Source: Staphylococcus phage Machias
Length of the DNA stretch: 64,000 nucleotides
Sequence record: MW349128.1
Reading direction: 5' to 3' (one strand)
Part shown: positions 3,834 to 27,498 of the stretch, in pieces
Layout of the letters: each line of letters starts with the position of its first letter
Position numbering within the stretch: the first letter of the stretch is position 1
Made by a program: the position numbers and the translations under genes
Notes under the pieces: model-generated
Database searches by the model: none
What the model was told of the DNA's origin: nothing
What the model saw: the letters and a program-made list of their open reading frames with translations, nothing else

Positions 3834-4631
3834 TTGGTTAATATGATTTATGATAAAAAAGATTTATCTGAGAAAGAAGTATCAACTTTATTAAGTATAA
3901 AAAAAGAAGATATTACTCTTGATAAACTTAAAGAATTATTTGCATTTAGACAAAATACACAACCAATGTTTAACCCTAGCGATAGATTTAAACTTAAAAA
4001 AGATTTAGTTTATAATAGTAAAGATGAGAGAACAACAGTTGGAAGATATATATTTAATAAATTTATATTAGACAATAAAATAGGACCTATTATAGGATAT
4101 ATGAATAAAGATATGGGAGGATCAGGTGTAGGAAATCTACAATCTGAACTATCTAGTTTATTACTTAATGATGTTATTACAACTAAAGATATGAATATGT
4201 ATATTGATAAACTTCAATGGCTCGGTTTCTCCATAGCAGGATTTATTAATTCTAGCTTAACAACTACAATGATGGTTGCTCCCGATAAAGTTAAACAAAA
4301 GAAAGAAGAATTACTAGAGAAATATGGTAAAGCATTAAATACTCCTGGTGAAGAATTGAATGCTATTAGTGCTATTGAAAAAGAATTAATTAAGTTAAGT
4401 AAGGAAGAATTAGAAGGTTTAGCAGATCTTGATATTTATGATAGTGGATCAAGAGGTAGTTTTGGAAATAACTTCAAGTTAACAGCTCTTATTCGTGGAG
4501 CAAATAAAAACTTTGCTGATCCTAGTAAAATACGTATTGCTAAGAGTTCTTTAGCTGATGGAATTGATCCAGAAGAATTATATATGTTTGGTGATATTAT
4601 GACAGCTGGTTCAGCTGGACGTGCTTTAGGT
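3834..4631 (+). CDS. RNA polymerase beta-prime-like subunit fragment, exon 1 (region around TTVGR through bridge helix). Unspliced ORF runs to TGA at 4637
   Basis: TTVGRYIF matches bacterial beta-prime TTVGRAI. The C-terminus IAKSSLADG...TAGSAGRALG aligns to bridge helix ARKGLADTALKTA-SGYLTRRL. TTG at 3834 or ATG at 3843 as start. The N-terminal catalytic part must be encoded elsewhere (split subunit). Confidence 0.6.
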
Positions 4632-4674
4632 ATATGAATGCCCTTTATTATAGTAATATAATAATAGAAAAATT

Positions 4675-4797
4675 ATTAATTGCTGAGAAGATATAAACTT
4701 AATCAGCATCAATCAGAATGATTGTTCAACGACTAAATATAATTAAACTCATAAAGAGTTTTTGATATAGTCTGATCTATATTAAATTAATATAGAT
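4675..4797 (+). ncRNA. Group I ribozyme core copy A (P3/P4-P5-P6-P7-P8-P9)
   Basis: P4 UGCUGA/UCAGCA, P6 CAAUC/GAUUG, P8 AACUC/GAGUU, P7 strands GACUA/UAGUC, P9 AUCUAUAU/AUAUAGAU. Confidence 0.55.
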
Positions 4798-4849
4798 TAA
4801 CATAAATGACTCAAGAAGGTGGGTAAATTAGATGCTCACAATAAATTCT

Positions 4850-4965
4850 ATTAATTGCTAGAATGTTAAAACTAACTAGCATCAACTTTATTAAGTTGTT
4901 CAACGACTAAATATAGAAATGATTAAATTCATAAGATATAGTCTAATCTATAATAAAATATAGAT
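4850..4965 (+). ncRNA. Group I ribozyme core copy B (tandem to copy A)
   Basis: Same element order with compensatory changes: P4 GCUAG/CUAGC, P6 CAACUU/AAGUUG, P9 AUCUAUA/UAUAGAU. R element identical to copy A. Confidence 0.55.
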
Positions 4966-4994
4966 AATAAAATGATCAAGCTAAAAAACTTATG

Positions 4995-5387
4995 TCCGCT
5001 TTCCAAACAACTGTATTAGATAAACAAGGTTCTGATTGTAGAACAAAACATACATTAAAATTAACATTAACTAAAGATAATGCGAGTCTTTTATTATATA
5101 GATATTTTGAAGATACTTCAGGAAGAAAAGGTCAATTAATACTATTAACGCCTGAAAATGTGGATGAACACATGGGTAAAGTATTGAACTTCAGAAGTCC
5201 TATGTATTGTGCAAGTGAAGATATTTGTAGTAAATGTGCAGGAGAACTCCCTTACAAACTAGGTATAGAAAATATTGGACTATTGGTTAACCAAGTGGCT
5301 CAAGCAATTGTAACAAGCTCCATGAAGTCTTTCCATGATATGACAATTAAACAAAATGAAATAGATATCGAAGATTATATTTATTAA
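4995..5387 (+). CDS. RNA polymerase beta-prime-like fragment, exon 2. ORF track gives 4992-5387, but ATG 4992-4994 is predicted to be the intron 3' end
   Basis: SAFQTTVLDKQGSDCRT aligns to VAQDLVVTEDDCGT. RSPMYCASEDICSKCAG...IGLLVNQVAQAI...SFH aligns to RSVVTCDTDFGVCAHCYG...[22 protein letters not shown]. Ends shortly after, so the rest of the subunit is encoded elsewhere. Confidence 0.6.
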   Translation, partial: SAFQTTVLDKQGSDCRTKHTLKLTLTKDNASLLLYRYFEDTSGRKGQLILLTPENVDEHMGKVLNFRSPMYCASEDICSKCAGELPYKLGIENIGLLVNQVAQAIVTSSMKSFHDMTIKQNEIDIEDYIY

Positions 5388-5428: not shown

Positions 5429-5434
5429 AAGAAA

Positions 5435-5504
5435 GTTTATCTAGCTCAGTTGGTAGAGCAATGATTTTCATCATGTGTCCGGGGTTCGATCCCTCGGATA
5501 AGCT
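5435..5504 (+). tRNA. tRNA-like gene with canonical acceptor, D and T arms but a non-canonical anticodon arm (possible pseudo-tRNA)
   Basis: Acceptor GUUUAUC/GAUAAGC, D arm GCUC-AGUUGGUA-GAGC, T arm CGGGG-UUCGAUC-CCUCG. Between D and T arms only 20 nt, forming AUGAU-UUUC-AUCAU (4-nt loop). Followed by T-run. Confidence 0.4.
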
Positions 5505-5810
5505 TTTTTTGGTCTAAAATTCTTATTTATTAAAAAATTTTATTTAAAAATATTAATTAACTATATAGTATAAATCTATAATGATCCTCGTCAAATTATT
5601 ATAGATTTTTTTTTTAGTTTTTGATTTAACTAAAAAATATAATAGATTAAATTCTATTATAACTTACTTTGTCGTTTGTTGTTGCTTTAAAAATGTTCCT
5701 TTGATTTCTTGTTTCTATTTTTAATATGTCATGGTTTTAAATAGAAATCCATACGCCTCCTTACGTATAATTAAAAATGAATAGATATTATTATATATTT
5801 ATTTACTTAA

Positions 5811-5857: not shown

Positions 5858-5929
5858 TGCTCTATAATTCAATGGTAGAATGCTTGACTGTTAATCAAGA
5901 GGTTGTTTGTTCGAATCAAACTAGAGCAG
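5858..5929 (+). tRNA. tRNA-Asn (anticodon GTT)
   Basis: Acceptor UGCUCUA/UAGAGCA, D arm AUUC-AAUGGUA-GAAU, anticodon arm CUUGA-CUGUUAA-UCAAG, variable AGGUU, T arm GUUUG-UUCGAAU-CAAAC. No encoded CCA. Confidence 0.75.
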
Positions 5930-5936
5930 TTTCTAT

Positions 5937-6039
5937 GTTCCTATAGCTCAATGGTCAGAGCGTACGGATTTCATGAATTATACCTGGATAGGATAATTTA
6001 TGGATCTGTAGGTTATGAGTTCGAATCTCATTAGGAACA
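5937..6039 (+). tRNA. tRNA-like gene with ~30-nt insertion in the anticodon/variable region (intron-containing, type-II-like or pseudo-tRNA)
   Basis: Acceptor GUUCCUA/UAGGAAC, D arm GCUC-AAUGGUCA-GAGC, T arm AUGAG-UUCGAAU-CUCAU are canonical. 52 nt lie between D and T arms instead of ~22. Confidence 0.4.
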
Positions 6040-26355: not shown

Positions 26356-27498
26356 ATGGATGTAGAAATAATTGAAAGAATAATAAATTCTAAAAAATTA
26401 AATTACAATAAAATGACGGAATTGGTTAGACCTTATATAGAGGGAGGAAGATTTAGAGGAAATACTAATAATAATAATGTAACCATTTATATAGACATTA
26501 ATAACGTTATTAAGCAATTATATTCACCTCAAGTTTCAGAGAATTTTACTCATTTAAAAACTAAAAATAGATTGAATTTAGTTGTTGAATTAGTAAATAT
26601 TATAGGACATTATAGACATTTCTTTGCAAGTAGATTAAATATGCATTCTAGATTCTTTTTATTCTATTCAGATAAAGAATCAATATATCACACTTCAGTT
26701 GATCCTGATTATAAAAAAGAATATTACAAGAAAATGAATGAAGATAATATAACTTATAGAGATATAAATAAGACTATATCAATAACATTAGAATTAGTTA
26801 AAACAATCGTAAAGTATATACCTAATGCATATTATATTGATACTTATAAAATAGAACCTACTATATTACCTTATTATATTATGGAAAAAACAACTATAGA
26901 TAATGAAAATGATTATTCTTTAATTGTAAGTAATGATAAAATATATAGACAATTATTAGATTATAAAGATAGACTACTACTTTTAGAATTAAGAGGATCT
27001 GAGAAGAGTAAAGTTATTTCCAAAGAAAATATAAAAGGAGAAATATTTAGTTCTAGCACAAAGAAAGATATTAATGATTTTATGAATATTGATTCTGGGA
27101 TCATAGATATTTTTAACTTATTTTCAGATCATAAGGATCAAGAATACAAATCTATATCTGGATATGGACCAGTAACTACAATTAAACTATTAGATAGAAT
27201 GATAGAAGATACAAAATTATCTCCTTTAAAAGAATATAATAATGAAACACTGTTAAGAGATACTTTTAAAGATTATTTAAAAGAAGAAAAATTAGAAGAG
27301 TTAATCAAACGCTTTAAGTTATTTGATCAAAAACACATTGTTGATGAAATTGATGGAAGTAAGATACAAAATATTTTATCTTCTCAAATAATAGATTTTA
27401 ATGACCCTTTAGAAATAAAAAGACTTAATGATGAATTATTTATAAATTCATTTATAAATATAGATTATTTATTTGAAGGAGAAATTAATAGAAACTAA
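26356..27498 (+). CDS. Hypothetical protein (380 aa)
   Basis: ORF with RBS AAAGGATG. Confidence 0.5.
   Translation: MDVEIIERIINSKKLNYNKMTELVRPYIEGGRFRGNTNNNNVTIYIDINNVIKQLYSPQVSENFTHLKTKNRLNLVVELVNIIGHYRHFFASRLNMHSRFFLFYSDKESIYHTSVDPDYKKEYYKKMNEDNITYRDINKTISITLELVKTIVKYIPNAYYIDTYKIEPTILPYYIMEKTTIDNENDYSLIVSNDKIYRQLLDYKDRLLLLELRGSEKSKVISKENIKGEIFSSSTKKDINDFMNIDSGIIDIFNLFSDHKDQEYKSISGYGPVTTIKLLDRMIEDTKLSPLKEYNNETLLRDTFKDYLKEEKLEELIKRFKLFDQKHIVDEIDGSKIQNILSSQIIDFNDPLEIKRLNDELFINSFINIDYLFEGEINRN

Follow-up and report, generated by a model that had tools for sequence, protein, structure and literature searches.

Two probable tandem ORF-less group I introns flanking a 16-nt exon in the bridge-helix codons of a Staphylococcus jumbo phage RNA polymerase gene

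The intron in the tRNA-Ile gene of Azoarcus (205 nt) is often named as the smallest group I intron able to splice itself. In Staphylococcus phage Twort, the single gene orf142 reportedly contains three group I introns and is subject to exon skipping, an observation said to have been made by Landthaler and Shub in 1999. The huge gut 'Jug' phages carry an average of 18.5 short ORF-less group I introns per genome, with a length of about 206 nt, which interrupt essential genes and about half of which have metatranscriptome support (Sci Adv 2026, PMC12880540). According to Korn et al. (bioRxiv 10.1101/2020.12.14.422802), the polymerase, gyrase and DNA polymerase genes of MarsHill-like phages are disrupted by introns, as in AR9, the numbers of exons being inferred from protein alignments. 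A further described type of element is the IStron. Group A IStrons (CdISt1-like) insert after TTGAT, ATTAT or TTTAT and have the 3' end TCAG; IStrons without an ORF have been described as well (Tourasse et al. 2014, PMC4227781).

The locus described here belongs to Staphylococcus phage Machias (MW349128.1), of which a stretch of 64 kb was analyzed (hereinafter, the window). This is an AR9-like Staphylococcus jumbo phage with about 96% identity to PB50 and AH12; in the region of interest, it shows about 82% identity to S6, PALS_2, MarsHill, Madawaska, DC4 and SA1, all of which are AR9/PBS1-like phages. The introns reported in AR9/MarsHill-like phages and those in the window share the phage group and the class of target genes (virion and non-virion polymerase subunits, gyrase and DNA polymerase), with intron content varying among relatives; in the accessible text of those reports, no description was found of the ribozyme family, its copy number or a 16-nt bridge-helix exon.

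The interrupted polymerase gene and its natural alleles

The gene at 3843-5387 encodes a fragment of the virion RNA polymerase beta-prime subunit, and its bridge-helix codons are broken by group I intron sequence. A tblastn search identifies matches to beta-prime-like genes in Staphylococcus and Bacillus jumbo phages. A preliminary description of the locus had pointed to two ORFs, 3834-4637 and 4992-5387, and proposed that one intron lies between them. These ORFs indeed share a frame and are separated by in-frame stops, and several other elements of that proposal hold, namely the ORF-less group I type, the beta-prime-like gene, the bridge-helix location, the need for splicing and the 5' splice site after T4631. 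The count of introns has to be revised: in place of one intron there appear to be two independent introns and a 16-nt exon, with PB50 carrying only the second intron and PALS_2 carrying neither. Judging from sequence comparison, the gene very probably contains two separate ORF-less group I introns, arranged in tandem, which flank a 16-nt exon within the bridge-helix codons and are both spliced out. The proposed gene model is as follows.

3843..4631, plus strand: exon 1, from ATG 3843 to the end ...GCT TTA GGT, collinear with PALS2_249 up to GGT
4632..4808, plus strand: intron 1, 177 nt, ORF-less group I, absent in PALS_2 and PB50, present in AH12 and LY01
4809..4824, plus strand: mini-exon, 16 nt, ACTCAAGAAGGTGGGT, coding for T-Q-E-G-G and the first base of a Tyr codon
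4825..4974, plus strand: intron 2, 150 nt, ORF-less group I, absent in PALS_2, present in PB50, AH12 and LY01
4975..5387, plus strand: exon 3, AT CAA GCT AAA AAA CTT ATG TCC ... TAA, collinear with PALS_2 from ATCAGGCT

The boundaries are fixed by natural alleles. In DNA alignments, the PALS_2 gene is uninterrupted, with ...GGT followed by ACTCAAGAAGGAGGGT and then by ATCAGGCT..., both introns are found in AH12, LY01 and the window, and PB50, in which exon 1 is fused directly to the 16-nt mini-exon, has intron 2 only. Altogether, intron 2 of this core polymerase gene is found in four phages of independent isolation, namely PB50, AH12, LY01 and the window phage, and intron 1 in all of these but PB50. 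By alignment alone, each boundary could be shifted by 1 nt, A being the first base of both the intron and the exon that follows it; this ambiguity is resolved by the U(-1)/terminal-G rule and P1 taken together. Both splice sites have U at position -1 and G at the intron end (G4808 and G4974), these positions coinciding with the boundaries of the intron-less alleles. The LY01 exons show 92% identity to the intron-less PALS_2 gene and 80% identity to the window, and LY01 has both introns, whereas the PB50 exons are 96.6% identical to the window, yet this phage is devoid of intron 1. Thus, the presence of the introns is decoupled from the gene backbone, which implies mobility or repeated precise loss.

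When joined, the three exons amount to 1218 nt, the same as the PALS2_249 CDS, and encode 405 aa without a stop; the conceptual three-exon protein gives an uninterrupted 1212-nt match in six relatives, PALS_2 among them. The joined sequence contains a continuous bridge helix (...RALG-TQEGGY-QAKKLMSAFQ...), of which exon 3 supplies the remainder; exon 3 also encodes the DC.T motif, the cluster of Cys residues and the first helix of the trigger loop. Alignment of the spliced product with solved bacterial beta-prime subunits is free of gaps through the bridge helix (the aligned product segment is AGRALGTQEGGYQAKKLMSAFQ, including TQEGGYQAKKL), and the mini-exon residues align to T-A-D-S-G-Y of the bacterial helix.

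Several tRNA or tRNA-like genes are located next to this gene. The tRNA gene at 5434-5505 (plus strand) has an abnormal anticodon loop and is reported by ARAGORN as 'tRNA-???', and tRNA-Asn at 5858-5929 is the only ordinary-looking one among these neighbors. The tRNA-like gene at 5937-6039 (plus strand) has an Rfam score of 54.7 bits, and ARAGORN makes no call for it. Its anticodon-loop region is enlarged by an insertion of about 34 nt: between the two strands of the stem, UUCAUGA precedes about 27 additional nt.

Ribozyme cores, predicted splicing and alternative readings

The conserved blocks of the intervening sequence are duplicated with a spacing of 171-175 nt, e.g., the P3/P4 block TATTAATTGCT, which is found at 4674 and 4849. 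The R and S elements noted in the preliminary description are present and close to the consensus; each of them occurs twice, not once. The elements assigned to the two introns are listed below.

4722..4741, plus strand: R element of intron 1, TTGTTCAACGACTAAATATA, J6/7 and the 5' strand of P7, an exact 20-nt repeat of 4896-4915
4896..4915, plus strand: R element of intron 2, TTGTTCAACGACTAAATATA, aligned to the Rfam group I consensus
4764..4773, plus strand: S element of intron 1, GATATAGTCT, J8/7 and the 3' strand of P7
4935..4944, plus strand: S element of intron 2, GATATAGTCT
4629-4633 (GGU/AU) with 4638-4642 (AUGCC), plus strand: P1 of intron 1, with a U.G wobble, from the unconstrained MFE fold
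4645-4652 with 4657-4664, plus strand: P2 of intron 1, with a GUAA loop, from the MFE fold
4666-4808, plus strand: P3-P9 core of intron 1, with terminal G 4808, from the family covariance model
4834-4839 (guide GCUCAC) with exon GUGGGU, plus strand: P1 of intron 2, with a U.G wobble, from the unconstrained MFE fold
4831-4833 (GAU) with 4975-4977 (AUC), plus strand: P10 of intron 2, 3 bp

Both introns align to the RF00028 consensus at the P, Q, R and S elements (AAUUGC, GCA, GUUCAACGACUAAA and AAGAUAUAGUC, respectively). No helix is found between P3' and P8, and among the Rfam models only the general RF00028 is matched. Minimum free energy folding with a few exon bases included recovers P1, P2 and P4-P9 of intron 1 (z-score of -4.2) and P1 and P4-P9 of intron 2 (z-score of -3.2). 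The weak points of intron 1 are P1, which consists of 5 bp, just 3 of them with exon bases, and a weak P10. Intron 2, the P1 of which includes the last 6 nt of the mini-exon, is reduced, with P2 absent, P5 of 2-3 bp, P8 of 4 bp and the terminal G at 4974. The two cores are 72% identical, and their peripheral helices diverge via compensatory changes; from this pattern, we infer that the peripheral divergence helps the two cores, which are only 16 nt apart, to fold separately.

An Rfam scan at the gathering threshold returns only tRNAs and no intron match. With an E-value threshold, RF00028 matches separately twice over its full length, once at 4602-4795 (23.8 bits, E = 6.6e-4) and once at 4802-4964 (24.9 bits, E = 3.2e-4); given that the gathering score of this model is 50, both introns score about half of it, so that routine Rfam annotation would report no introns. 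The covariance scan that was suggested along with the single-intron proposal thus detects group I introns, two of them, with scores under the gathering threshold; we attribute the low scores to the poor fit of the general model to very small, AT-rich introns. A family covariance model (R1) of P3-P9 was built from 14 copies at 8 insertion sites: those in the beta-prime gene in four phages, in gyrB of PB50, in MarsHill's DNA polymerase gene and in nrdE of LY01, together with the MarsHill virion beta-prime gene (two sites), the Madawaska virion beta gene and the third copy in the window. With this model, intron 1 scores 133 bits (E = 1.6e-22) and intron 2 scores 103.7 bits (E = 5.6e-17). In the 14 copies, P3-P9, including the P7 pseudoknot, is paired in 95.8% of the cells, with compensatory changes in 25 of the 41 pairs, compared to 28-44% pairing in a control in which the 3' partners were slid by 1-3 columns; in the 31 copies from AH12 (see below), 90.3% of the cells are paired and 28 of the 36 pairs show compensatory changes. 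The alignments were fitted to the model structure, so these paired percentages are somewhat inflated, the margin over the controls being large. P7 and most of P4 are uninformative on covariation because they are invariant.

Under the model with two tandem introns, each intron folds alone: its internal guide pairs with the end of the upstream exon (P1, with U.G at the cut), and the P3-P9 core, including the P7 guanosine pocket, forms. Splicing would follow the two steps usual for group I introns: attack of an external guanosine on the 5' splice site, then attack of the released exon end on the bond behind the terminal G. Exon 1, the mini-exon and exon 3 would thereby be ligated, with the predicted RNA junctions GGU-ACUCAAGAAGGUGGGU-AUCAAG, yielding a 1218-nt frame and a 405-aa protein with an intact bridge helix and the predicted junction-spanning peptide ALGTQEGGYQAK. 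Conceptual removal of a single intron results in a premature stop, and skipping of the mini-exon results in a frameshift and a stop because 16 is not divisible by three.

The single 363-nt group I intron originally proposed (4632-4994, with splicing after GGU and between AUG and UCC) has U at -1, G at 4994 and an in-frame product. However, the 3' splice site between 4994 and 4995 is misplaced: the segment 4975-4994 is exon in the intron-less relatives and, like 4809-4824, is coding in PALS_2 and five others, such that 327 nt (177 + 150) would be removed rather than exactly 363, the other 36 nt belonging to exons. PB50 is devoid of the first half of the supposed intron and has the 16 nt fused to exon 1, and the stretch contains two full cores, both of which have a P1 and a terminal G of their own. 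Furthermore, the corresponding product, TAGSAGRALG-SAFQ..., would miss 12 bridge-helix residues, TQEGGYQAKKLM, which are kept in every uninterrupted homolog and can be aligned position by position to the bacterial bridge helix; the equality in length with the E. coli segment, which had been put forward in favor of this product, is a mis-alignment. A single intron is therefore extremely improbable. A truly split gene, in which there is no splicing and the polypeptides encoded by 3834-4637 and 4992-5387 assemble in the polymerase, would be in line with the frequent division of jumbo-phage polymerase subunits among separate genes, and the GenBank records of PB50, AH12 and LY01 annotate the gene as two separate CDS. 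Nevertheless, ATG 4992 is preceded by TAAAAAACTTATG, with no Shine-Dalgarno-like sequence, which makes independent translation of the second ORF unlikely; furthermore, 12 conserved residues would be lost, with the bridge helix cut in two, and the intervening DNA consists of two covarying ribozyme cores that are precisely absent in relatives, so that we consider this arrangement highly improbable. A twintron was considered as well and rejected because the 16-nt spacer is exon in PALS_2 and PB50.

The low Rfam score would also be compatible with decayed relics of introns in a gene that is a pseudogene in the window phage. This is almost certainly not the case, considering that compensatory changes between the window and LY01 copies preserve every helix, that the exons are intact and in frame, and that the same arrangement is found in three independent isolates (window, AH12 and LY01), with intron 2 alone in PB50; in AR9-like phages, the virion polymerase is needed for early transcription. 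Finally, the introns could be spliced in vivo without being autonomous, if the reduced cores, especially that of intron 2, need a phage or host protein or a chaperone. Many group I introns rely on protein cofactors, P2 is missing from intron 2, in which P5 and P8 are vestigial, and intron 2 of LY01 and a MarsHill relative have almost no P8; against such dependence, the catalytic junctions, like P7, do not vary and stay close to the consensus. For the two introns taken together, we view a requirement for a helper as possible rather than probable; intron 2, being so reduced, may need a protein helper.

The intron family and the IStron in the window

The two tandem introns in the beta-prime gene belong to one multi-copy ORF-less family that has probably spread in some Staphylococcus jumbo phages, often in tandem and often in catalytic motifs. 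A BLAST search finds the introns in five of the nine Staphylococcus jumbo phages covered by the collection. The family model identifies 31 copies (45-131 bits) in the complete AH12 genome (OR455461), in 13 clusters located in or beside nrdE, gyrB/parE, RNA polymerase genes annotated as rpoB and rpoBC, and others. The PALS_2 genome has essentially no copies, with one weak match to the family model (36 bits), and the 64-kb window has three. Comparison of the AH12 clusters with PALS_2 shows sites that are cleanly empty and gives intron lengths of 144-206 nt; the boundaries of clusters 0, 3, 8, 9, 11 and 12 are not defined exactly, since PALS_2 carries insertions of its own, of a different kind, in or close to these positions. 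One tandem pair in AH12 (approximately 71014-71363) flanks a 12-nt exon, and another (118655-118987, minus strand) flanks a 6-nt exon, GCCGAT, within the catalytic motif G-A-D-Y-D-G-D of another beta-prime-like gene. The guide classes match their own targets, GCUCA with ..GGGU, GUCG with CGAU and GCC with GGU, a pattern compatible with spread to short sites of similar sequence; selection for splicing might by itself generate such matches, too.

The gyrB gene of PALS_2 (locus L018, 34385-37933) contains an insertion of about 1.27 kb with the ORF PALS2_026 and no match to the family model, and at the same gyrB position AH12 (165582-167461) has a 176-nt mini-intron. In these related phages, one and the same site seems to hold elements that are unrelated to each other.

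Intron 2 of LY01 (L004:2483-2636) and a MarsHill copy (L007:1701-1849) have almost no P8, and the MarsHill copy also has no clear P9. Both reside in virion RNA polymerase genes of isolated and propagated phages and may represent either extremely minimal group I cores or introns dependent on a helper.

Outside the isolated phages, the 17-nt R motif is found in 95 IMG/VR stretches, mostly on contigs of 200-400 kb, and the family model applied to the IMG/VR stretches retrieved by this motif (loci L024-L103) yields 254 matches, frequently in tandem. For example, in L081 (11850-12360, minus strand), two introns flank a 14-nt exon, TGACACTTTCCCAT, of a beta-prime gene, between the NRQPSLH-like and NADF motifs. 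A further insert in L081 seemingly lies right after ...AATGCAGATTTT (N-A-D-F). A bacterial origin is unsupported: none of the 19 bacterial genome loci with the 17-nt R motif matches the family model (E <= 1e-4). In the window, the matches to the R and S motifs at 26576 and 26771 on the minus strand were dismissed as chance, given that they are inside a plus-strand ORF and in the wrong order.

The window also contains an IStron.

45526-47178, plus strand: IStron, a 1653-nt insert exactly between ...TTTAGAT and ATGAATAGAAC... of a large structural gene
45785-46987, plus strand: TnpB ORF within the IStron, with the Pfam domains HTH_OrfB_IS605, OrfB_IS605 and Cas12f1-like TNB

The position of the insert implies that the ORFs 42085-45600 and 47179-48702 represent a single gene in two exons, which is contiguous in PALS_2, S6 and DC4. 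The group I core in the 5' part of the IStron belongs to the same family as the mini-introns (108 bits), and its P1 is formed by AGAU/UGUU and AACAGUCU; the 3' part (46990-47178) is more GC-rich and ends with ...AACAAGACAG. In LY01 (locus L017), a copy of the IStron with 88% identity is present at a different site. Introns 1 and 2 themselves are not IStrons, being too short (177 and 150 nt) for a tnpA or tnpB gene. Upkeep of the mini-introns by the TnpB of a resident IStron is rejected for AH12, which has 31 copies yet no tnpB or IStron 3' region.

Significance and comparison with known systems

Intron-rich jumbo phages have already been published, and this kind of organization is known. What is new here is a well-resolved case in an S. 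aureus phage amenable to cultivation, where the putative ribozyme is unusually small and the predicted internal exons are very short; a search of the literature on PB50, on a 'mini-exon' in phage group I introns and on the 'smallest group I intron' found nothing relevant. The gene model is corrected for a core polymerase subunit that three GenBank records list as two separate proteins, and a standard Rfam scan misses the entire family of mini-introns. The Staphylococcus aureus phage provides a cultivable system to address the minimum size of a working group I ribozyme, the ability of near-identical ribozymes 16 or 6 nt apart to fold and splice without interference or exon skipping, and the way in which ORF-less introns reach about 30 copies in one phage and none in close relatives. 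Tentatively, and with considerable doubt, intron 2 and its relatives (about 150 nt) might be the smallest natural self-splicing group I ribozymes, members of a family that spreads by RNA-guided recognition of very short motifs, via reverse splicing or via an IS200/605-like route related to the resident IStron. If true, such RNA-guided spread would account for the location of arrays at catalytic motifs and for exons as short as 6-16 nt.

Among the known systems, Twort orf142 resembles the window gene in that several ORF-less group I introns are located close together in one phage gene and in that an exon could be skipped. The Twort introns are reportedly larger, with the extra helices of the IA2 type and with longer exons, and in the window gene exon skipping would shift the frame. 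The 'Jug' phages differ from the window phage in host and lineage, and the copies of the family found in the window phage and its relatives are shorter (144-206 nt, with intron 2 at 150 nt); the IMG/VR contigs with many, often tandem, copies of this family may be those of 'Jug' phages. Similarity to the Azoarcus intron consists in a compact core without large peripheral domains and, in intron 1, a P2 with a GNRA loop. Unlike the Azoarcus intron, intron 2 is 150 nt long, has no P2 and retains only vestigial P5 and P8, and its autonomy is putative. The window IStron, inserted after ...GAT and ending with ...CAG, is close to the rule for group A (PMC4227781). Introns 1 and 2 share the ribozyme core family with this IStron and differ from IStrons in the lack of the IS part; the ribozyme core common to these introns and to a TnpB IStron of the same genome is a lead on the origin of the family.
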